From a virus (lineage: Duplodnaviria > Heunggongvirae > Uroviricota > Caudoviricetes), in IMG/VR virus record IMGVR_UViG_3300021310_000004: a DNA stretch of 12,503 bases; one strand, written 5' to 3'. This document shows, in pieces, positions 1,353 through 11,954 of this stretch; within the stretch, counting starts at the first letter, position 1, and each line of letters begins with the position of its first letter. Both the position numbers and the translations under genes were made by a program. The notes under the pieces are model-generated. The model worked only from the letters and a program-made list of their open reading frames with translations. It searched no databases and was not told the origin of the DNA.

Positions 1353-1378
1353 TAAATATGATTCGATTTTATGGATAC
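1353..1378 (-). promoter_or_regulatory. Class-B motif copy 1 (GTATCCA-N11-CATATTTA)
   Basis: Matches the copies at 3000-3025, 7473-7498 and 10531-10556 with identical spacing and is oriented toward the downstream ATG. Promoter function is inferred. Confidence 0.7.
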
Positions 1379-1412
1379 AAAAAAAGCAGACCCTTTATGA
1401 TAAGGGCCTGCT
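1379..1412 (-). terminator. Intrinsic terminator of the lipoprotein gene
   Basis: Minus strand AGCAGGCCCTT-ATCATA-AAGGGTCTGCT followed by a T-run, with one G-U wobble. It starts 9 nt after the stop codon. Confidence 0.85.
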
Positions 1413-1420
1413 CTTTAAAA

Positions 1421-2971
1421 CTAGTTCTCGGATTTTGCGCCTTGATTATCCGTAACTTCTTTTGTTGCGGAATCTGTCGCTGCATCAGGTTTTTGCGTCT
1501 TCGTTGTCTCGCTTTGTTCGGCATTTTTCGTGGAATTTGTTTCATCCGTTGCGGATTCAACATTTGCTTCTATATCAGTCTCAGCACTCTCCGGAGAAAC
1601 AACTTCATCCGGAACTTTTGGTTCCGCTGTTAAGAGCTTATATCCATCGAACCCGTTACCAGCCTCTTTAAACGTAATAATGTAGGTTTCCCCTGTAACG
1701 AGCTCTGGCTTTTGCGCACTCTTTAAGTACTTCATATCAAGAGTCTCGTTATTATTTACGTTCGTAGCCTGCAACGTATATTCCGAACGGCTTTCAACAA
1801 TTTTCGCTGCACTAATAGAATCAATTCGATACGTGCCAGTATACACACCACCATTTTCTGGACTCAATGCTGTTGGGTGCGTAATAGAAATATTCATCTT
1901 CTCCGGATCTGTATTGGTAACCTCATCATATGTCAAGCCATCGCGTTCAATTACTTTGCCGTCATAATCTAATAACTCACCTTCAACTAAGAAATCATTC
2001 TCGTCAAAGTGCATTCCGATAGATGTTCCGTCTACGCCACCATCCTTGTTATAAGTGTAAATGGTCTTGTTATAATCTTCAGCAGCTAATTTAGTGTAAT
2101 CGGTAATATCTTCATCAGCAACGTAGCGATAAAATCCGCCACCGCCGATGTTATAGTAACCGGTTGTTACGTAATCCGGAATATTAAGCTCCGCAATTAA
2201 TGGCGTAATGAATGTAAAAGAACCAAACATGTAAGTTTCCGCACTGGAAAAATAGTGAATATTTGCAGTGAGATCTACCAATACTCGTTCCGTTCCCCTA
2301 CGAACATCGCAGCTATATACTTTGCCAGCTTCTAATCCAGTGACAGTACCAGACATTGACATATTAAGTGGTGTAATTCGCTCATCACCTACCTGGACCA
2401 AATAAATGGACTCCACATCTTCCATTCCGTCAAATCCAACGGCATCTGATGTTGGCATCGTATGTCCGCCTCCATCGCCTCCGGAATAACGGTAGTTTCC
2501 AGATAAATCCTGCTTCAACCCCATAACACCTAGCGTGTACCCATTATCAAAGAACTTCTCTAACGCATACTTTGTAGGGATATTATTAGACGACTTGTAA
2601 ATCATCTTATCTGTTGCGTACATGGTTGGAATGGTTGCTTCATCTAGATCCTTGTTAACCCATGTGACTCTCGATGGATCATATCCAGCCTTATTTTCAT
2701 GGATATTTTCCATGGTATTATTTGCCTGTAACAGTGGATAGTATCTCGTCTGTTTTACTTTAGATTCTTTACCAGTGAGTGATGTTTCTTTAACCGTTAC
2801 ATCTCGTACGATGTAATAAGCATCTGATGGTAATTCGTCTTCGGATAAATAAAATGGCGGTTCCGTTGCTGCCGCACTAGTGCTACTTGATTCTCCGCAG
2901 CCAGTAAGCGATGCAATCATCCCGACAAGCATACAGCCAACTAAAGCTATACTTACAATCCTACGTTTCAA
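1421..2971 (-). CDS. Hypothetical lipoprotein, 516 aa, with an S/T/A/E/K-rich C-terminal tail
   Basis: TTG start with SD AGGAGG. Signal peptide MKRR plus a hydrophobic stretch ending in lipobox LTG-C (Cys25). No family recognised. Confidence 0.85.
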   Translation of the reverse strand: MKRRIVSIALVGCMLVGMIASLTGCGESSSTSAAATEPPFYLSEDELPSDAYYIVRDVTVKETSLTGKESKVKQTRYYPLLQANNTMENIHENKAGYDPSRVTWVNKDLDEATIPTMYATDKMIYKSSNNIPTKYALEKFFDNGYTLGVMGLKQDLSGNYRYSGGDGGGHTMPTSDAVGFDGMEDVESIYLVQVGDERITPLNMSMSGTVTGLEAGKVYSCDVRRGTERVLVDLTANIHYFSSAETYMFGSFTFITPLIAELNIPDYVTTGYYNIGGGGFYRYVADEDITDYTKLAAEDYNKTIYTYNKDGGVDGTSIGMHFDENDFLVEGELLDYDGKVIERDGLTYDEVTNTDPEKMNISITHPTALSPENGGVYTGTYRIDSISAAKIVESRSEYTLQATNVNNNETLDMKYLKSAQKPELVTGETYIITFKEAGNGFDGYKLLTAEPKVPDEVVSPESAETDIEANVESATDETNSTKNAEQSETTKTQKPDAATDSATKEVTDNQGAKSEN

Positions 2972-2999
2972 TATTTTTACCTCCTAAGTGATTTATGTA

Positions 3000-3025
3000 T
3001 AAATATGTTGCGAATTTTTGGAAAC
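3000..3025 (-). promoter_or_regulatory. Class-B motif copy 2 (GTTTCCA-N11-CATATTTA)
   Basis: Same bipartite motif and spacing, 29 nt upstream of the lipoprotein start. Confidence 0.7.
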
Positions 3026-3036
3026 ATAAATATAAT
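3008..3036 (+). promoter_or_regulatory. Sigma-A-type promoter for hup
   Basis: TTGCGA (3008-3013), 17 bp spacer, TATAAT (3031-3036), upstream of the hup SD. Confidence 0.75.
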
Positions 3037-3091
3037 GGTCTTTAGAAGGCATAAACAAATGTTTGCCGCTTTTTAAAAGGAGGAGATTACT

Positions 3092-3367
3092 ATGAACAAA
3101 GCAGAACTTATTACTGCTATTTCTGATACAACGGATTATCAGAAGAAAGATATCGATGCAATTATTAACGCTTACACTAAAGTCGTAACAGACGCATTGA
3201 AATCTGGCGACAAGGTTCAGCTCGTAGGATTCGGTACCTATGAAGTTGCTACACGTCCAGCTAGAATCGGTCGCAACCCACAGACCGGAGCAGAAATGAA
3301 GATTCCTGCAGCGAAGGTACCTAAGTTTAAGCCAGGCAAAGCATTAAAGGACGCTGTTAATAAGTAA
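3092..3367 (+). CDS. hup: Histone-like DNA-binding protein HU
   Basis: MNKAELI start, signature VQLVGFGTYEV and RIGRNPQTGAEMKIPAAKVPKFKPGKALKDAV, 91 aa, SD AAGGAGG. Confidence 0.97.
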   Translation: MNKAELITAISDTTDYQKKDIDAIINAYTKVVTDALKSGDKVQLVGFGTYEVATRPARIGRNPQTGAEMKIPAAKVPKFKPGKALKDAVNK

Positions 3368-3371
3368 GTAC

Positions 3372-3401
3372 AAAAAAGGCCTCTCAATTGAGAGGTCTTT
3401 T
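3372..3401. terminator. Bidirectional terminator between convergent hup and recD2-like genes
   Basis: AAAAAAGGCCTCTC-AATT-GAGAGGTCTTTT, with an A-run on one side and a T-run on the other. Confidence 0.85.
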
Positions 3402-3424
3402 ACTATACTTATGTACCTGGATAA

Positions 3425-5617
3425 TTACATCGCTTTCTTTTTCTGACTTGACTCCGATGTCTCTTGTAAGAATTCCAATACCCTGGTTCGTCGTTTTACA
3501 AAATATTCGTTTTTCAAACAGCTTTCGAGCGCGTCACCCGTGTACAACAATATGACCTTCTTTTTCGCTCTTGTAATTGCTGTGTACAACAAATTACGAT
3601 TCATCATACGCTTTACATTCTCTTCGCCGGATAGATATATAATAATTACACCGTTTTCTGACCCTTGCGATTTATGAATCGTATAAGAATATGCATATCT
3701 AGCATCATTTAACACGGAACGCTTCATTGTCCGTTCATCTGTACCATCGAACAAAGTGACTTCGTCGTCATCTAAATCCTCAATGACCGCCACCTCTCCA
3801 TTTGTATAAATCGGCACTGATCTTGTTTCGCCGTTTTCGTCCATCTCGTTGACGTATTCATTCCGAATGAACATAATCTTATCGCCATTCATTAATTCAT
3901 CGGAGATATCCTCTCCGAGCTCTTTATGCGTGTTTCGATGTGTTCTAATGTTTAGCGCGTCGCATCCGGCGGCACCTTTTTTTGATGCCTCAATCAACTG
4001 GCAATAGAATGGTTCGTCTTTCTTGTAATACATATCCATTAGCCTGGATAATATGGAATACGCATGAAATTCGTTCTTAGCTCTTCCGATTGCAAAGTCG
4101 TCAGCTTTAATTGGCTCCTTACCTTTTAATACCCGTTTTCCGTTATCGATAATCGTTCCTTCACTTCTAAAGTTCTCCGTTAATCGATACACCGGAAACA
4201 ACCCGGATGAAATAACATCGTGCAAACAGTTGCCAGGACCAACAGATGGTAATTGATCTTCATCACCAACAATTAAGAACCGGCAATTCTCCGGAATTGC
4301 ATTTAGTAACATGCTGAACAAATGTGTGTCACACATGGAGCCTTCATCTAAGATAATGAGTCCAGCTTCTAATGGGTTGTTATTGTTACGTTCCGCGCCA
4401 TTATCTTGGAACGGATTGAACTCCAACAATTTCTGGATCGTTTTTGCTTCCATACCGGTTGACTCGGACAATCGTTTTGCAGCTCTGCCCGTTGGCGCAC
4501 ATAACAATACTGGTTGCCCAGGATTCTTCTTTTGGTAATAAATGATAATCCCATTTATGACCGTCGTTTTTCCCGTTCCTGGTCCACCGGTCAATACCAT
4601 GATTCCATTTTGTTCGAGCATATGGAACGCATTTCTTTGTCCCGTGCCGTACCTTGTATGTAACATATCTTCTATAGCTTCAATCTCGGCGTCTTCTATT
4701 ACGATTCCACTTTTGAGTCCCTCATCGATTCGCTTTAGTCGAATCGCAATATTCATTTCCTCATCATGAATCGATTTAAAAGATACGTACCCATTATTAT
4801 TATCCAAATGGAATATGCGATTTGTAGTAACCTCATTTGCTACGCACACAATCGGAATGTTACATCGATAGATGCTTTTTATGGATAAACGATTTACCCG
4901 TTGGCCAAGATCCTTAGCTTGAATATAAGTGTGCCCTTCATTTCCAATCTGGAGCAGCGCATAACTAATTAAACCGGCTATGCGACGTTTATCTAGTTCA
5001 TCAATATGCAAATCATGTGCGATATTATCAGCTACTTGGCGCTTGATGTCGAACTTGATGCATTCTGTATATGGATCCTTTTTGAATTTTGCAATTGCAC
5101 CGGTACCATATTCTTCATCGATTTTCTCGATGCTTGAGTATGACACTTCGTAAGGCGCAAAGAATTCTTCCAGATCCGAAATCGTGGACACATAATACCA
5201 CTCGTCGAGAAATGCAGCGATTGACTTGGCTGATATGCCGCCCTTGAATTCAGACTCTAATCGCTCCTTAAATACAGGCCTAGGCATTGTAAAGACATCT
5301 GCTCCAAACTGAGATACAATGGCCTCTACGCGCTTTTTCCCGATACCACATCCTTTAATCTTATTGGTCATATATCTAGCGACCTGATCCGACCGGCTAA
5401 AATATGGCTTAAGCCGGGTGGCCTCGAACACGCCGTTTTTAATATCGCCTGTAAGAACAACTGGCATATATAGATTTAATCTAGAGTTGAAATACAAGCA
5501 CTCCATGGATCCGGTGTTCTGTTCCTTTGCGCTATCCGCATCCAGCTGAACGCGGAATATAACCTTTGCACCGCAGACCTTTTTTGTTATGCTTGTGATG
5601 ATTCCTTTGATTTCCAT
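3425..5617 (-). CDS. recD2: RecD2-like SF1B ATP-dependent helicase, 730 aa (start moved from 5773 to 5617)
   Basis: Walker A GGPGTGKTT, LCAPTGRAAKRL, Walker B ILDEGSM, VGDEDQLPSVGPG, YTIHKSQGSE, RNLLYTAITRAKK and an N-terminal HhH-like GIGKKRVEAIV. ATG 5617 has SD GAAAGG, whereas the longer ORF crosses a terminator and motif A. Confidence 0.92.
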   Translation of the reverse strand: MEIKGIITSITKKVCGAKVIFRVQLDADSAKEQNTGSMECLYFNSRLNLYMPVVLTGDIKNGVFEATRLKPYFSRSDQVARYMTNKIKGCGIGKKRVEAIVSQFGADVFTMPRPVFKERLESEFKGGISAKSIAAFLDEWYYVSTISDLEEFFAPYEVSYSSIEKIDEEYGTGAIAKFKKDPYTECIKFDIKRQVADNIAHDLHIDELDKRRIAGLISYALLQIGNEGHTYIQAKDLGQRVNRLSIKSIYRCNIPIVCVANEVTTNRIFHLDNNNGYVSFKSIHDEEMNIAIRLKRIDEGLKSGIVIEDAEIEAIEDMLHTRYGTGQRNAFHMLEQNGIMVLTGGPGTGKTTVINGIIIYYQKKNPGQPVLLCAPTGRAAKRLSESTGMEAKTIQKLLEFNPFQDNGAERNNNNPLEAGLIILDEGSMCDTHLFSMLLNAIPENCRFLIVGDEDQLPSVGPGNCLHDVISSGLFPVYRLTENFRSEGTIIDNGKRVLKGKEPIKADDFAIGRAKNEFHAYSILSRLMDMYYKKDEPFYCQLIEASKKGAAGCDALNIRTHRNTHKELGEDISDELMNGDKIMFIRNEYVNEMDENGETRSVPIYTNGEVAVIEDLDDDEVTLFDGTDERTMKRSVLNDARYAYSYTIHKSQGSENGVIIIYLSGEENVKRMMNRNLLYTAITRAKKKVILLYTGDALESCLKNEYFVKRRTRVLEFLQETSESSQKKKAM

Positions 5618-5641
5618 ACGATTAGCGCCTTTCTTCCTATA

Positions 5642-5678
5642 TACAATACGTATCATTTGGACATATTTTGTGACAAAA
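5642..5678 (-). promoter_or_regulatory. Class-A motif copy 1 (TTTTGTCACAAA-N9-AATGATACGTATTGTA)
   Basis: 27 of 37 positions are identical across three copies (5642, 6596, 10400). It lies 25 nt upstream of the recD2 start. Confidence 0.8.
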
Positions 5679-5714
5679 AAAAGACGCGGCTCAGTTTTAC
5701 CCGAAGTCGCGCCT
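5675..5714 (-). terminator. Intrinsic terminator of the exonuclease-like gene
   Basis: Minus strand AGGCGCG...CGCGTCT outer stem plus an imperfect inner stem, then a T-run that merges into motif A. Confidence 0.65.
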
Positions 5715-5738
5715 ATGTAATAAGGAAGAATCCGTCCG

Positions 5739-6560
5739 TTACGCACTATGTTTGATTTTTTGAACCACCTCATAAATAGAAGCGGATTTTGTCTTATTCA
5801 TAATATACTCCGTAAACGAATCCATATCAACCTCATCAAATTGCTTACCATAATCCTTAAAATACAAATTATCGCAGTCCAACAATATGAGACCTGATTC
5901 TGTGGTAAACACGATATGCCGGCCATGTTCGTTCTCAACATAGGTAGCATTTTTCACGAAGCCATCTTTCACGGCCGCATCCGCTTTTGGTAGTCTTTTA
6001 TAAAGAGCATCAAGCGCTTTCGTATAACCAGCCAAGTTTGCCGTTACGTTAAATACGCTGCACAAATCATTGAACGTATATCCGCTATTATTTACATCCG
6101 GAAGAATTACCGTCTTGAATAATGTCTTTACATCAAATCCGCCAATCGCTGCTAAAGGCACGCCGGTTGTTTTGGCCGCCTTAAACAGAAACGGATAAAT
6201 AAATCTCTTCGTATTGAATCCACAAATGTACGTATTCGTACCTAAAAACTGATTCAGTTCCTCAAGAACGTCTTTTAGGTTACAACCATTATCAATCATT
6301 GGTTGTGTGATGCCGGAAGCTTTAGATGCCTCGATTGAGATCACCTTTTTCGTCTTAATGATCTTCGCAAAAGTTGCTCCAGAAATCAGATTGTCTCCAG
6401 CATCTAGTTTTACGGCACGAATTCCACAGATCTCATCTACCTCTGGATCAAATCCGGTGGTTTCGATTTTAATAAAACATAAAGAGGCCTCTTTATTTCG
6501 AACTCTAGCCAAGATCTTCTTATATGTCATATCGTTTTGAGTTTTATAGTATCTTACCAT
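5739..6560 (-). CDS. DnaQ/PolC-type DEDDh exonuclease-fold protein, probably catalytically degenerate, 273 aa
   Basis: ExoI-like FIKIETTGFDPEVDEICGIRAV, SKASGITQPMI, L.EVLEEL.QFL and ExoII-like GFNTKRFIYPFL. Several catalytic positions are substituted. SD AAGGAGG. Confidence 0.8.
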   Translation of the reverse strand: MVRYYKTQNDMTYKKILARVRNKEASLCFIKIETTGFDPEVDEICGIRAVKLDAGDNLISGATFAKIIKTKKVISIEASKASGITQPMIDNGCNLKDVLEELNQFLGTNTYICGFNTKRFIYPFLFKAAKTTGVPLAAIGGFDVKTLFKTVILPDVNNSGYTFNDLCSVFNVTANLAGYTKALDALYKRLPKADAAVKDGFVKNATYVENEHGRHIVFTTESGLILLDCDNLYFKDYGKQFDEVDMDSFTEYIMNKTKSASIYEVVQKIKHSA

Positions 6561-6595
6561 TTTTTGCCTCCTTCATTTTCTATAATAATCCTACC

Positions 6596-6632
6596 TATAA
6601 TACGTATCATTGAACCATGCTTTGTGACAAAA
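6596..6632 (-). promoter_or_regulatory. Class-A motif copy 2 (TTTTGTCACAAA-N9-AATGATACGTATTATA)
   Basis: Same conserved blocks and spacing, 36 nt upstream of ATG 6560. Confidence 0.8.
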
Positions 6633-6672
6633 AAAAGCACCAAACAATGGATTTTCCATCGTCTGATGCTTT
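6629..6672 (-). terminator. Intrinsic terminator of the 235-aa SSB-like gene
   Basis: 18-bp stem (6634-6651/6655-6672) whose three non-Watson-Crick pairs are all G-U on the minus strand, followed by a T-run overlapping motif A. Confidence 0.9.
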
Positions 6673-6676
6673 AATA

Positions 6677-7384
6677 TTATTCTTCCGGAGTCTCGATTTG
6701 CACTGTACCGATAACGAACACATCTCTAGCTACTAATTGCTGTTCTGTGATCTCTCGGCCGTCCTTGAGCGTTGTGTATCGTGTGTTGATCCACCCGGTA
6801 ACATCTAACCAGGTACCCTTGGTAAGTTCATTCTTGATGATCTGAACATCGTGTTCACCCTCCTTGTTTCGATGGATGGCAACCGGAGTCTCGGATACGT
6901 AATCAATCTCAAAGAACTCCTTATCAGATTCCTTATTCGGGTTCTTAACTTTCTTATGAACATTCGTATACAGGTACACCAGAATAATCTCGTTCGAAAT
7001 TACAACTGTTTTTGTGATGCGTCCGCGAATGTTCATATTCTTACGGTCGAAAATCTCTTTACCGCTTGCAATTCGGCTGGACATCGTAAGTCCATATACC
7101 TCAACCTGATCTCTTGCAATATCATAATTTCGCTTCTTTTGTGATACGCCGGAGATAACGACCATATCACCAAGCTCAAACATCTTATCGTACGTAGATC
7201 CAAGTGCCCCTTCAAAGTACACGGAAATTCTCGTGTATTTTGCAGCCTGCCCGCGACCCTTCTTAACAGATACGGTAAATACATGCTTGTTTTTGAGCTG
7301 TTTCTTAAAAATTAGCTTGCCTGAAATGATAACGCTGTTATGGAATTCAAATTCGTTACCACTACTTTTGATTACATTTGACAT
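6677..7384 (-). CDS. Tandem-OB-fold SSB-like protein, 235 aa
   Basis: Two SSB-like repeats: NSVIISGKL...LGDMVVISG and NMNIRGRI...LTKGTWLDVTGWINTRYTTLKDGREITEQQLVARDV. SD AGAAAGGA. Confidence 0.7.
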   Translation of the reverse strand: MSNVIKSSGNEFEFHNSVIISGKLIFKKQLKNKHVFTVSVKKGRGQAAKYTRISVYFEGALGSTYDKMFELGDMVVISGVSQKKRNYDIARDQVEVYGLTMSSRIASGKEIFDRKNMNIRGRITKTVVISNEIILVYLYTNVHKKVKNPNKESDKEFFEIDYVSETPVAIHRNKEGEHDVQIIKNELTKGTWLDVTGWINTRYTTLKDGREITEQQLVARDVFVIGTVQIETPEE

Positions 7385-7472
7385 GAATTTTAGTTCCTTT
7401 CTATCATATTTTGTTCGTTCGCTCGGACTTTCATCTCGGATATAAGTAACCGAGAATTCCCGTCCGCATTCT

Positions 7473-7498
7473 TAAATATGAACCTGGTTTTTGGAAAG
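7473..7498 (-). promoter_or_regulatory. Class-B motif copy 3 (CTTTCCA-N11-CATATTTA)
   Basis: Same motif and spacing, 89 nt upstream of ATG 7384 and 1 nt from the upstream terminator T-run. Confidence 0.7.
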
Positions 7499-7499
7499 T

Positions 7500-7528
7500 A
7501 AAAACTCCGCCAGTAATTGGCGGAATCT
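7500..7528 (-). terminator. Intrinsic terminator closing the sigma/ClpX-like operon
   Basis: Minus strand TCCGCCA-ATTAC-TGGCGGA followed by GTTTTT. Confidence 0.85.
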
Positions 7529-7548
7529 GTGTTGTTGGTTATTCTGTA

Positions 7549-7689
7549 TTATTGAGTTTTCTTGCGTAGTCGTTCGATTGGACATGCACCTTCTTTTACG
7601 CTATCCATACAATCATTATTATTAGAAGAGACCATGCACTTTCCTTCTACGCAAGAAGGATACTCTTTGATTGCCTTGTTCCAATCCAT
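7549..7689 (-). CDS. 46-aa Cys4 microprotein (not in ORF track)
   Basis: MDWNKAIKEYPSCVEGKCMVSSNNNDCMDSVKEGACPIERLRKKTQ. SD AGAAAGGA sits directly after the stop of the upstream ATPase gene, and a terminator follows. Confidence 0.7.
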   Translation of the reverse strand: MDWNKAIKEYPSCVEGKCMVSSNNNDCMDSVKEGACPIERLRKKTQ

Positions 7690-7710
7690 TGTATTGTTCC
7701 TTTCTATATA

Positions 7711-8868
7711 TTAATTCAAATATTCTTCCGGCTTATCATCCCAAACCATGCTTTGTTCGAACCAGTTCTGTTCCTCTTCCATACGTACGATTTTTTCTTC
7801 TTCAGACAATCGCTGGAATGGTTCCCATGTATATGTTGCGTCGTGTAGTTTATTGATCGTGATAGACAATTTCTTAACATCGTGATTTACGATCGCATTC
7901 GTGTACGCTTCCAATACGGTCTCTCGCAACGCAGCATCAATTAATCTACATCCGTATTTAGAATTCGCCATCTGTACCAGTTCTTCTTCGGCGCTATCAA
8001 GAACGGTAAGGGAATCCAGGTTAAAGTTCTGCGCGATATTCCGAACGGTTTTTGTGATGACCATTTTGATATCATCTATTCCAAGTTTATTGTAATTAAC
8101 AATATACGGAAAGCGTCCGATTATTTCGTTTGACGCTCCAGCATCAACCATATCGTTTCTGGTCAATGGAAGATATGGATTATCCTTCTCTGTGTTCCAA
8201 GTTGAGTTGATGCCGATTGGATTCTTCTTCTCCTCTCTTCTATTGCGAAATGATTCAAATGATCCAAGGCCAACGAACATCAATCTATCTGTTTTTATTG
8301 TTCCGCGATCATTCGTATATACTTCGCCACCCTCAATCATGCTAAGCAAAGATGCCTGTACATCACCATTTACGTTTGTTCCATTGGAGTCGTACATTGG
8401 GATTACCTTCTTATCGAACTCGTCTAAGAATACGATTCCCATAGGATTCATATCACGTCGCTTAATAAATGGCGCTAAAATAGAAACTGTATCATTTCCC
8501 TTGAATCCATTTGCGGTAACAGATGACATATCGTAAATGTAAACGGAAAGAGATGGTACTGCTTTTGAAAAATACTTTTGAATCGCACGATACGTCTCGG
8601 TCTTTCCGGATCCAGACGGCGCACTGATAATCATATTATTGCGAATCGGAGAGTCTTGCAGCAGAGCGTTTAAATAAGAATAAACGTTTGCACATACCTG
8701 CTTTAATCCATCCTGACCAATTACGTCTTCTTTGACACTATTATAGAACGTTGAAAATGGGACCTCCTCCAACCAATGGGAGATTTCGTTTTTAACAAGG
8801 ATGCTGTGCATGTCACCTGTTAATCCTTTCTGTGGTACTGTTGTAAATTCTGTAATATTACTATCCAA
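7711..8868 (-). CDS. ClpX/HslU-like AAA+ ATPase lacking the N-terminal zinc-binding domain, 385 aa
   Basis: VIGQD, Walker A APSGSGKT, pore-loop ANGFKGND (ClpX EAGYVGED), Walker B IVFLDEFDK, GDVQASLLSMIEG, TDRLMFVGLGSF, EIIGRFP and sensor-2-like YGCRL. TTG start with SD AAGGAGG. Confidence 0.88.
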   Translation of the reverse strand: MDSNITEFTTVPQKGLTGDMHSILVKNEISHWLEEVPFSTFYNSVKEDVIGQDGLKQVCANVYSYLNALLQDSPIRNNMIISAPSGSGKTETYRAIQKYFSKAVPSLSVYIYDMSSVTANGFKGNDTVSILAPFIKRRDMNPMGIVFLDEFDKKVIPMYDSNGTNVNGDVQASLLSMIEGGEVYTNDRGTIKTDRLMFVGLGSFESFRNRREEKKNPIGINSTWNTEKDNPYLPLTRNDMVDAGASNEIIGRFPYIVNYNKLGIDDIKMVITKTVRNIAQNFNLDSLTVLDSAEEELVQMANSKYGCRLIDAALRETVLEAYTNAIVNHDVKKLSITINKLHDATYTWEPFQRLSEEEKIVRMEEEQNWFEQSMVWDDKPEEYLN

Positions 8869-8932
8869 TATTTTGTCCTCCTTTTCATGCTCTAATAATA
8901 AGTAAAAAGACCGGTTTTTCGGCTGTTTGGTT

Positions 8933-10159
8933 TTAGAAAATATCTAAAATATCTTCCAAATCGTCCTCATCTTCCTGCTCGAAAACAAGTCCGCGACCAG
9001 ACAAAAGCTTGTCGCCGCGCTTCTCCCGGACGTTATATGATTTCTTCAACTTCTGCAGTGCTCCGGAGATAATCTGCTGAATTTTGATACGATCAATTCC
9101 GGTCATCTCTTCGATCTCATAGGCCTTCATCGGACGCGTTTCAATAAACTGATTACCATCACACTCTAACCCGAGATTAAGGCACAACAGTGTGCGTTCT
9201 TCATCGGTAAGGTTCCCCAGATGCTGCATCATGTCGCTACGTTTCTCCTGATCCAATAAATTGGATTCTGGCATTGCGAAACTCGTTTGAGCAATCATTC
9301 CGCCACTGTTATTAAAATCTGGAGAATCGATCGTTGTCATTGTGTTCTTTGCATATACACGAGCCAACGCTTCCGATACTTCCTTTACGGACTTATTTGT
9401 CATATGAGCAATAAGCGCAGTAGTTGGCACGATTCCTCGTTTCTCGCATTCGCTAAGTGCATTGATAACAAGTTTATTCGTACGCATATCCTGCTTATTT
9501 GGTTCTCCGGTTCTTTTCGCTTCAAATTCAAACACGGAGCCCGACAATATCTTCGCATTAAAGAATGTAGTAAGCTGGTATCCAGTGCTTGGATCGTATC
9601 GGTCAATATTTTCCCAAATATAGGCTGCGCACTGGTTCAATGCTTCTACAACTCGGTTGTAGCGTTCTGAGTCTGAAATTGGCTGCTTCTTATAATAATT
9701 CTCACATACGGTACGAACATAGTTTCTAATCGTCAGCCATAATGCATTCTTAGCAAGTTCAAATGCATCCTTGTATTCCGGACCATATAATTCCTTATTC
9801 ATGTCCTGGATAAATGTGATCAAGAACAATTTTGCATCGTTGCAGTTTCGCTTTGCAAAATAGGTTGCATATCGAATCGCTTCTCTTTTTGATTTTGCAT
9901 CATCTTTATAAAGAAGCGTTAGCGCCTTATTCTGGTCAAATTCCTTGTCTTCATATGTTTTGTCCAGCCCGTAGCGCATCCAGTCATTCAGAGCCTCTTC
10001 TTCTTTTGCGCGTTTCTTTTGAGGCTTCTTTTTAGGAACATCAATTTCATCCAAGACACTCATCGACTCATCCAGCTCAGATTCGTGTTTTGTTTCGTTT
10101 TTATGAACTTCGTCATAATAATCAACATCATCGTAACGTTCATCATCTAATACGTACAT
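8933..10159 (-). CDS. Divergent sigma70-family RNA polymerase sigma factor, 408 aa
   Basis: Region 2-like IWENIDRYDPSTGYQLTTFF, region 3-like PTTALIAHMTNKSVKEVSEAL...TIDSP and region 4 LGNLTDEERTLLCLNLGL...AYEIEEMTGIDRIKIQQIISGALQKLKK. SD AGAGGT. Confidence 0.85.
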   Translation of the reverse strand: MYVLDDERYDDVDYYDEVHKNETKHESELDESMSVLDEIDVPKKKPQKKRAKEEEALNDWMRYGLDKTYEDKEFDQNKALTLLYKDDAKSKREAIRYATYFAKRNCNDAKLFLITFIQDMNKELYGPEYKDAFELAKNALWLTIRNYVRTVCENYYKKQPISDSERYNRVVEALNQCAAYIWENIDRYDPSTGYQLTTFFNAKILSGSVFEFEAKRTGEPNKQDMRTNKLVINALSECEKRGIVPTTALIAHMTNKSVKEVSEALARVYAKNTMTTIDSPDFNNSGGMIAQTSFAMPESNLLDQEKRSDMMQHLGNLTDEERTLLCLNLGLECDGNQFIETRPMKAYEIEEMTGIDRIKIQQIISGALQKLKKSYNVREKRGDKLLSGRGLVFEQEDEDDLEDILDIF

Positions 10160-10177
10160 ATTTTCTTACCTCTCTAA

Positions 10178-10369
10178 TCAAAACCACTTCATCGTCCGAC
10201 CGTTCTTGTATTGTTCATTTGCTACCGAATGCATCCATGCGATATCGGCCATTTCAATAAAGTCCTTGTTTTTTTGTTCCTGTATTACATAATTCACGGC
10301 TTCTGTCGGAGTTTTGAATGTACCGTCACGCAGTACCTGATCTAATAAATCATATGTATCTTTTTGCAT
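10178..10369 (-). CDS. Small hypothetical protein, 63 aa (start moved from 10444 to 10369)
   Basis: ATG 10369 has SD GAAAGGAG. MQKDTYDLLDQV...MKWF ends 18 nt before the sigma start codon. Confidence 0.7.
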   Translation of the reverse strand: MQKDTYDLLDQVLRDGTFKTPTEAVNYVIQEQKNKDFIEMADIAWMHSVANEQYKNGRTMKWF

Positions 10370-10399
10370 GATCCGGCTCCTTTCAAAATACCATTCACA

Positions 10400-10436
10400 T
10401 ATAATACGTATCATTGTTTGTCGTTTTGTGACAAAA
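10400..10436 (-). promoter_or_regulatory. Class-A motif copy 3 (TTTTGTCACAAA-N9-AATGATACGTATTATA)
   Basis: Same conserved blocks and spacing, 31 nt upstream of the first gene of the sigma operon. Confidence 0.8.
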
Positions 10437-10530
10437 TTTTCCATCCTTTTTTAACACATTATGTATTGATTAATGTAGCTACATATGTAAAGAAGTAAAT
10501 CCATTCGATGAACTTTTTAAATCGTTATTA

Positions 10531-10556
10531 GTTTCCAAATATTAATTTCATATTTA
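10531..10556 (+). promoter_or_regulatory. Class-B motif copy 4 (GTTTCCA-N11-CATATTTA)
   Basis: Same motif on the plus strand, so it flips with gene orientation. It lies 40 nt upstream of ATG 10596. Confidence 0.72.
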
Positions 10557-11687: not shown

Positions 11688-11719
11688 AAAAAGGACGTAC
11701 CTAAATTGGTACGTCCTTT
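11686..11719. terminator. Bidirectional terminator
   Basis: Perfect 12-bp stem AAAGGACGTACC-TAAATT-GGTACGTCCTTT, with a 7-A run on the left (minus-strand U-tract) and TTTATT on the right. Confidence 0.9.
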
Positions 11720-11902
11720 ATTCTCGCATTCATGTGTCGCGAGCTTAACCATTTATAATGAAAGCTCCTCGCTTTTGTTGCCCACCCTATCGAGCAACAC
11801 GGTTTTATCGATACCTTTTGTAACGTGATTTGCTATTTCGGTCGAATCAATAGACCGGAGCGGTTTTCACTTGCAAGATTCGAGTCCAAAGGTAACCCGC
11901 AT

Positions 11903-11916
11903 CAAACCTTTGTTCT
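11903..11916. promoter_or_regulatory. Putative Firmicutes-type LexA (SOS) box, just downstream of the predicted start site
   Basis: Minus strand AGAAC-AAAG-GTTTG matches GAAC-N4-GTTY. Confidence 0.6.
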
Positions 11917-11925
11917 TATATTGGT

Positions 11926-11954
11926 ACTCTATCAAACTTTTGTTCGCTTGTCAA
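11926..11954 (-). promoter_or_regulatory. Sigma-A-type promoter with a LexA box in its spacer
   Basis: TTGACA (11954-11949), 17 bp spacer, TG-A-TAGAGT (11931-11926). Confidence 0.7.
11933..11946. promoter_or_regulatory. Putative LexA (SOS) box in the promoter spacer
   Basis: Minus strand CGAAC-AAAA-GTTTG. It forms a direct repeat, 30 bp apart, with the box at 11903-11916. Confidence 0.65.

Follow-up and report, generated by a model that had tools for sequence, protein, structure and literature searches.

The DNA analyzed here is a 12,503-nucleotide (nt) stretch of a virus of the Caudoviricetes (IMG/VR record IMGVR_UViG_3300021310_000004; hereafter, the window), which is one end of a 78,149-base-pair (bp) ENA metagenome contig, L001. 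It contains an operon for a 408-amino-acid (aa) protein of the sigma-70 family, P0001, together with genes for single-stranded DNA-binding and OB-fold proteins, a lipoprotein, an HU protein and a RecD2-like helicase, and two recurrent intergenic motifs, denoted class A and class B (Table 1). Class B, the main subject of this work, combines an upstream box with the octamer CATATTTA; an earlier note, made from the letters of the window, had proposed that it is a promoter and that P0001 is the sigma factor that reads it.

Altogether, 28.2 kilobases (kb) of the element were assembled from L001 and a second contig, L014, joined through exact-protein matches, with a 3,444-nt overlap free of mismatches. 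Four related metagenomic contigs, L005, L007, L008 and L018, were added, in which the sigma is 76%, 46%, 46% and 39% identical to P0001, respectively. Lineage-wide motif counts refer to the 28 kb of the element plus these four relatives (76.5 kb, of which 8,961 nt are intergenic and 67,575 nt coding), and protein families were scanned for in 29 open reading frames (ORFs), from the 28 kb plus L018. No near match of the window was detected among the INPHARED phages, and neither deposited phages nor IMG/VR contain a near relative of it; at the protein level, the highest matches are to uncultivated fecal phages, at about 30% identity. One of the relatives encodes a phage tail domain, the element itself carries a partition-type actin gene, and its HU gene is closest to the HU genes of rumen Lachnospiraceae (63-68% identity). 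The element is an uncultured, phage-like one of rumen or gut Clostridia, with a host probably among the Lachnospiraceae.

Table 1. Promoter-like motifs, terminator and sigma operon genes of the window, by position
Feature	Coordinates	Strand	Remarks
Class B copy 1	1353..1378	-	GTATCCA-N11-CATATTTA; 34 nt 5' of ATG 1318 of the 1667-aa protein
Class B copy 2	3000..3025	-	GTTTCCA-N11-CATATTTA; 28 nt 5' of TTG 2971 of the 516-aa lipoprotein
Canonical sigma-A-type promoter of the HU gene	3008..3036	+	TTGCGA-17-TATAAT
Class A before the RecD2-like helicase gene	5645..5676	-	Probable start ATG 5617
Class A before the 273-aa RNase_T-like gene	6599..6630	-	
Class B copy 3	7473..7498	-	CTTTCCA-N11-CATATTTA; 88 nt 5' of ATG 7384 of the 235-aa OB-fold protein
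Intrinsic terminator ending the sigma operon	7502..7528	-	Called terminator
46-aa ORF	7549..7689	-	Last gene of the sigma operon
385-aa ClpX-like AAA+ ATPase (AAA_2)	7711..8868	-	Directly after the sigma gene
408-aa sigma-70-family protein P0001	8933..10159	-	Regions 2, 3 and 4; candidate class B reader
63-aa ORF	10178..10369	-	First gene of the sigma operon; no family match; position kept in relatives (63-71 aa)
Class A before the sigma operon	10403..10434	-	TTGTCACAAA-N12-GATACGTATT
Class B copy 4	10531..10556	+	GTTTCCA-N11-CATATTTA; 39 nt 5' of ATG 10596 of the 283-aa SSB

Class B in the window and across the lineage

The earlier note had listed four intergenic copies of class B with a spacer of 11 bp, and an exact-pattern scan recovers precisely these: STWTCCA-N11-CATATTTA has exactly four exact matches in the window and none in 200 dinucleotide-preserving shuffles of it. 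The same four copies account for every CATATTTA octamer in the window, so that none lies in coding DNA, and a search that tolerated three mismatches to an extended consensus, GTTTCCAAAA-N8-CATATTTA, returned these sites and no others (0.06 expected). All four are intergenic and, as had been described, point to start codons and occur on either strand, with a split of three on the minus strand and one on the plus strand; the measured distance of 28-88 nt agrees to within a base or two with the 29-89 nt given before. No Rfam families or tRNAs overlap the class B copies, and a search of the literature gave no relevant mention of CATATTTA in promoters of bacteria or phages.

The placement of the individual copies is promoter-like. 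Copy 1 directly follows the terminator of the lipoprotein gene (a hairpin and T-run read by eye), and the T-run of the terminator that ends the sigma operon runs into the box of copy 3, forming a terminator-promoter cassette. The intergenic regions around copies 2 and 4 separate divergent genes, that of copy 4 being common to the SSB gene and the sigma operon. Because no upstream transcript can reach such regions, a start signal at the DNA level is needed there, and class B is the sole promoter candidate for the lipoprotein and SSB genes. Copy 2 also overlaps the canonical promoter of the HU gene back to back (minus and plus strand, respectively; window 3000-3036), and polymerase bound to one of the two may exclude occupancy of the other.

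Across the lineage, CATATTTA is found 22 times in intergenic DNA, compared to 1.4 copies expected and at most 6 in 300 shuffles (an approximately 16-fold excess), and 7 times in coding DNA, where 6.7 are expected. All intergenic octamers face a downstream gene on the same strand, with the start codon 27-88 nt away in 20 cases, 123 nt away in one and 318 nt away in another, the latter copy standing in tandem with a second one. In L005, L007, L008 and L018, the octamer is invariant 5' of orthologous genes (SSB, OB-fold protein) within diverging flanks, and class B as a whole is retained in relatives whose sigma is only 39-46% identical. About nine of the aligned copies, by eye, come directly after a T-run of at least five, one of these T-runs belonging to a called terminator. 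The upstream block fared less well than the octamer. Described previously as STWTCCA, it is present at all four copies of the window, but in the wider element it is not obligatory, a GTTyyCA(AAA) box being found at exactly N11 in 18 of the 22 intergenic copies and missing from four, and its conserved part is longer, comprising a T-rich stretch, GTTyyCA and AAA(A). The full profile reads T-rich, G-T-T-y-y-C-A, A-A-A, 7-8 variable bases, CATATTTA and usually then A, and the consensus of the box changes from GTTTCCA in the clade of the window to GTTCTCA in more distant clades.

Three individual loci are worth recording. In L008 (2470-2500), GTACCCA-N11-TATATTTA, with T for C at the first position of the octamer, precedes a 180-aa gene; no other variant octamer was seen that has a proper box. 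In L014 (6558-6602), two divergent octamers each lie 11 bp from one box, TAAATATG-N11-GTTTCCA-N11-CATATTTA, which suggests that the box may act in either orientation. Beyond the right end of the window, L001:375-1338 encodes a DUF6718 protein and a 208-aa protein with a RelA/SpoT domain, as in small alarmone synthetases; the CATATTTA that lies 123 nt upstream lacks a box.

Class B could in principle be an operator or another DNA site, such as a repressor, replication or packaging signal, and the symmetric single-box arrangement of L014 is indeed operator-like. We consider this very unlikely: every copy (22 of 22) is co-oriented with its downstream gene, copies are placed after terminators and, in 20 of 22 cases, 27-88 nt before start codons, the motif is asymmetric with an AT-rich, -10-like octamer, and the divergent regions leave the lipoprotein and SSB genes without any other promoter candidate.

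To compare the element with its likely hosts, we used a degenerate two-part pattern and 301 sampled Lachnospiraceae genomes; this comparison applies to the family and not to the host strain. The phage DNA (76.5 kb) contains the pattern 15 times (about 200 per Mb), and the 301 genomes contain it about 222 times in total (about 0.7 per genome, with a maximum of 6), that is, about 700-fold more rarely per base; a reversed control pattern also scatters matches in these genomes. Class B is therefore at background level in the likely host family and is not a host promoter class, and the equal frequency at chromosomal genes that the earlier note had named as contradicting its proposal is not observed in these genomes. 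Five Lachnospiraceae genomes with phage-like motif matches encode ordinary sigmas only and no relatives of P0001. These counts bear on the proposal that class B is read by an alternative sigma of the host, for example, one of the sporulation type (E, K or G), so that the element would follow the developmental program of the host. The likely hosts are Clostridia, and the octamer begins with CATA, as does the -10 consensus of sigma-E, sigma-K and sigma-G of Firmicutes; yet a pattern present about 0.7 times per genome, and at most 6 times, in the likely host family, as against about 200 per Mb of phage DNA, leaves this proposal with hardly any credibility, the least among the readings considered here, and, to our knowledge, the upstream box fits no sporulation -35 consensus.

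The element also contains canonical TTGACA/TATAAT promoters, for HU and for a noncoding RNA, and class B is therefore not simply its version of a host promoter; the HU promoter shows that the element uses host-type promoters where wanted. The noncoding RNA is a conserved structured one of about 200 nt (window 11690-11954, minus strand, which is L001:2180-2446, plus strand; L007:765-1011; L008:6540-6774), the promoter of which is canonical (TTGACA-17-TAGAGT) and the terminator of which is bidirectional, serving a 76-aa gene as well. Of its 50 predicted pairs, 13 keep pairing through two-sided changes, and it has no Rfam match.

With two blocks at a fixed spacing, an intergenic position and co-orientation with a gene, class B has the makeup of a bipartite promoter. 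The consensus for sigma-28 of Escherichia coli is TAAAGTTT-n11-GCCGATAA (PMC2859248), and in the open complex of the Pseudomonas aeruginosa fliC promoter the -10 block extends from -15 to -8, with A-11 flipped out (PMC12784957). The earlier note had seen the spacing of class B as short, but sigma-28 promoters share the 8-N11-8 layout, so that the spacer is not anomalous. When TATTTA is set at -12 to -7, the box comes to lie at -32 to -26, no more than one or two bases off the upstream block of sigma-28 promoters, and the conserved T-T-G just before and at the start of the box gives a TTGTTy hexamer with a 16-bp spacer (arithmetic on the aligned copies). Since this geometry fits, a sigma with regions 2-4 could read class B. 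Taken together, the intergenic and gene-oriented placement, the frequent position behind terminators, the conservation and the confinement to the element argue, at the level of sequence, that class B is very probably the promoter of some private factor.

A divergent sigma-70-family protein and its operon

P0001 yields no Pfam or PHROG match at default thresholds, and its affinity emerges from more sensitive comparisons. Against Pfam Sigma70_r4, it reaches E=0.064 and its relative P0008 reaches 6e-5; members of the family match Sigma70_r2 below the cut-off of that model. A profile built from four homologs finds the region 4 chains of RpoD (4g6d, E=0.0098), and sigma factors make up almost the whole list of 19 PDB matches for this profile. 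Among the NCBIfam models, the best is FliA_WhiG (E=1.9e-8), followed by RpoS (4.9e-8), over residues 182-385; the alignments extend over residues 182-373 for the FliA_WhiG model and 147-373 for TIGR02937. All these scores are below the curated cut-offs (for FliA/WhiG, 34 bits vs 190). The motif DRYDPS..TTFFN fits the pattern of regions 2.2-2.3. An exhaustive profile search collected 165 proteins, among which the distant ones tested match the Pfam models for regions 2, 3 and 4, and one, P0060, is a clear FliA/WhiG sigma. The AlphaFold model of P0001 is of modest quality (mean predicted local distance difference test score, pLDDT, of 61) with a confident helical core, and all 50 matches listed by Foldseek against the PDB are sigma factors (such as sigma-S, sigma-A, sigma-B and sigma-32), aligned over 259-378 columns; for sigma factors in holoenzyme structures, the alignments cover 280-370 columns. 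Region 2 and the helix-turn-helix of region 4 are thus recognizable in a protein that stays below the curated score cut-off, and on the combined evidence of profiles and predicted structure, P0001 is a genuine, very divergent sigma-70-family protein of the group-3 type with regions 2-4. The reading of this ORF as a sigma in the earlier note is borne out by the Foldseek, FliA_WhiG/RpoS and region 4 profile matches alike, all of which point to the sigma-70 family.

The family seems to be confined to metagenomic phage contigs, where alone it was seen: a tblastn search with P0001 against the INPHARED phages gave no match, and no relatives were found in IMG/VR, the genome contig set, the JGI metagenome contigs or 401 Lachnospiraceae genomes. 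Besides the sigma regions, P0001 has an acidic N-terminal extension and a conserved acidic-hydrophobic C-terminal tail, in which LLSGRGLxF, an acidic run and L-D-D-I-I-x-I are invariant beyond region 4 (window 8933-9010). The order of small ORF, sigma and ClpX-like AAA+ ATPase is kept in the relatives with listed neighbors, including the P0019 locus (28% identical), and the tail and the adjoining ATPase gene could stand in a docking or degron relationship.

The most distant contig, L018, encodes an additional sigma-like gene (394-2280), the product of which is a 628-aa protein with an N-terminal extracytoplasmic function (ECF) sigma domain and a 430-aa extension; the gene lies just upstream of two class B copies. 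No homolog of this protein was detected on the 78-kb contig, and the idea that two sigmas serve the two motif classes in the element described here was dropped as unsupported. A comparison of the recognition helices of the sigma with the motif variants, among which the box shifts between clades and the octamer never does, was likewise too weak for assigning a motif class.

Candidate readers of class A and class B

Class A, the second private motif of the element, consists of TGTCACAAA and, after 12-14 bases, (G)AyAyGTATTA, and is as conserved as class B. In addition to the sites in Table 1, it precedes the partition-type actin gene and a 441-aa gene with a PHROG transposase match only. Sigma, class B and class A co-occur in all five lineages read, and in each of these the sigma operon has class A upstream and never class B. 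In four of the five, the gene upstream of the operon is divergent, so that read-through cannot supply the first sigma molecules and a promoter readable by the cell is needed. Class A has a near-perfect TTGTCA, and three of the four lineage groups have, 17-18 bp on, a hexamer that begins with TA and, one base ahead of this hexamer, a TG; to judge by these letters, a primary sigma could use it via TTGTCA and the TGnTA-type region. The -10 part differs between lineages (GATACGTATT, GCTATGTATT, GACACGTATT and ATACGTGTTA).

The class A site of the helicase gene touches on gene annotation. The start called for the RecD2-like helicase, ATG 5773, makes this gene overlap the one upstream. Positions 5636-5700, however, hold a terminator-like hairpin and class A, and ATG 5617 is preceded by a ribosome-binding site of good quality; ATG 5617 is thus probably the true start, giving a protein of 730 aa (718-720 aa in the relatives).

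In the model that we favor, CATATTTA would serve as the -10 region and the box, at about -32 to -26, as a -35-type block that strengthens the promoter without being essential, with transcription starting approximately 5-9 nt after the octamer. The reader would be the host core RNA polymerase carrying the 408-aa sigma of the element; the sigma itself would be made from class A, presumed to be readable without it, so that a cascade from class A through the sigma to class B would switch on the SSB, OB-fold, lipoprotein, 1667-aa and other genes. With class A taken as a cell-readable promoter, class B would be the only abundant orphan signal left for P0001, the only phage sigma seen. The earlier claim that the sigma of the element reads class B is thus upheld as to the existence of a real sigma, with its operon behind class A, but no result ties this sigma to class B over class A, and we regard the chances of the assignment as even.

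Several observations weigh against this assignment. Class A is as conserved and private as class B and, as its TTGTCA can be read with a canonical spacer, has just as good a claim to be what a sigma with regions 2-4 recognizes; ECF sigmas are often transcribed from promoters that they themselves read. Four of the 22 class B copies lack the box, and the L014 box, at 11 bp from each of its two octamers, looks more like a site that works in both orientations than like a directional -35 element. The presumed DNA-reading helices 2.4 and 4.2 vary much among the relatives of P0001, whereas CATATTTA is constant. The sequence covers 28 of 78 kb, so that another factor may be encoded elsewhere, and the partition-type gene would allow steady-state inheritance of the sigma, weakening the bootstrapping argument.

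One alternative is that P0001 reads class A, in an ECF-like autoregulation, and that class B belongs to another phage factor or RNA polymerase from the remaining 50 kb. Class A is always 5' of the sigma operon, its TTGTCA stands at a canonical 17-18 bp from the TGnTACGTA region, its -10 part varies by lineage as does region 2 of the sigma, and the ECF-type second sigma of L018 demonstrates that two-factor systems exist in the lineage. On the other hand, the first sigma molecules would have to come from another source, given that four of the five lineages have a divergent gene upstream; there would be no candidate reader for class B, which is the more abundant of the two motifs; the ECF protein of L018 has no homolog that was seen on the 78-kb contig; and the 29 ORFs scanned include no RNA-polymerase-like or second sigma-like protein. 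We view this alternative as unlikely but to be taken seriously.

The box itself invites a different explanation, namely, that class B is read by the primary sigma of the host with the help of a phage activator bound to GTTyyCA-AAA, in the style of the middle promoters of phage T4, in which a MotA box lies 12+/-1 bp from the -10 element and AsiA remodels sigma. The likeness is in the upstream box which, about 11-13 bp from the -10 element, replaces the -35 hexamer: in class B, the box is 11 bp from the octamer, CATATT carries A and T at positions 2 and 6, the two that matter most in a -10 element, and the L014 box at 11 bp from two divergent octamers is what a bound protein would give. However, a primary sigma could not use the four box-less copies, which have neither a -35 nor a TG extension; the octamer does not vary at any of its eight bases, a rigidity well beyond that of host -10 elements; the scanned ORFs (28 kb plus L018) gave no match to the MotA or AsiA families; and, were class A read by the host, the dedicated sigma would have no promoter class to serve. 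This explanation appears improbable.

Finally, P0001, the 63-aa protein, the ClpX-like unfoldase and a Cys4 microprotein might jointly form a self-contained switch, with a constant supply of sigma from class A, release controlled by the tail and reading of the octamer as a -10 alone. The C-terminal tail (LLSGRGLxF...LDDIIxI) would then be a docking site or degron for the co-encoded unfoldase, the freed sigma would read what is essentially a -10-only octamer, with the GTTyyCA-AAA box working in either orientation, and the promoter logic of this phage-plasmid-like lineage would fall between the T4 late and sigma-28 types. As a joint proposition, this is speculative and, on balance, improbable as well.

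If the pairing of P0001 with class B is true, the regulation of these large phage-like elements of rumen Lachnospiraceae, a lineage with no cultured member, could be mapped, in that transcription units and temporal classes would become readable from sequence alone, and a compact, apparently orthogonal sigma-promoter pair would be at hand as a possible genetic tool in Clostridia. The family of P0001 is far from known sigmas, with an N-terminal extension, a conserved C-terminal tail and a constant AAA+ partner, and its biochemistry could inform the understanding of promoter recognition.

Comparison with known sigma-promoter systems

By named family, P0001 scores best with the sigma-28 (FliA/WhiG) group, and class B resembles the promoters of this group in its layout of a 7-8 bp block, 11 bp and an 8-bp composite -10 block. 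It differs from them in that neither block matches the TAAAGTTT or GCCGATAA sequence and P0001 remains below the membership score; furthermore, the sigma-28 regulon is flagellar whereas the class B regulon consists of phage genes.

The late promoters of T4 consist of TATAAATA and are read by gp55, a minimal sigma without region 4, together with gp33 and the sliding clamp. Class B is similar in having an invariant AT-rich -10 octamer as the core signal, which stands alone in 4 of the 22 copies, and in that genes with other classes of promoter lie between its copies. Unlike gp55, P0001 has region 4, 18 of the 22 class B copies have the box, and class B does not qualify as a promoter of the T4 late type.

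Podoviruses of the phiEco32 and 7-11 type infect enterobacteria and have an ECF-like sigma. Their sigma promoters were inferred by comparing intergenic regions (Guzina and Djordjevic 2015, PMC4331800), and the likeness to class B is in the conserved, low-copy private promoters, the assignment of a phage sigma by inference and the sorting of genes into temporal classes. The difference is in the grounds, which for these phages include homology with the experimentally characterized phiEco32, whereas class B is known here from sequence alone.

A close parallel in regulatory logic is the Bacillus phage SPO1, in which early promoters read by the host sigma-A are followed by those of gp28 (middle) and of gp34 with gp33 (late) (PMC13401047). 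As proposed here for the element, a sigma encoded by the phage and made from an earlier promoter class redirects the host core polymerase to scattered private promoters. Both also carry an HU-type protein, which in SPO1 is TF1. The SPO1 sigmas are small, gp34 lacking whole domains, whereas P0001 is a 408-aa protein with regions 2-4 and N- and C-terminal extensions; there is no sequence relation between them, the promoter consensus differs, and only one sigma is seen in the element. A phage sigma with a private promoter is, then, an already well-known arrangement, with SPO1, T4 and phiEco32 as examples, and class B, if paired with P0001, would repeat that paradigm.

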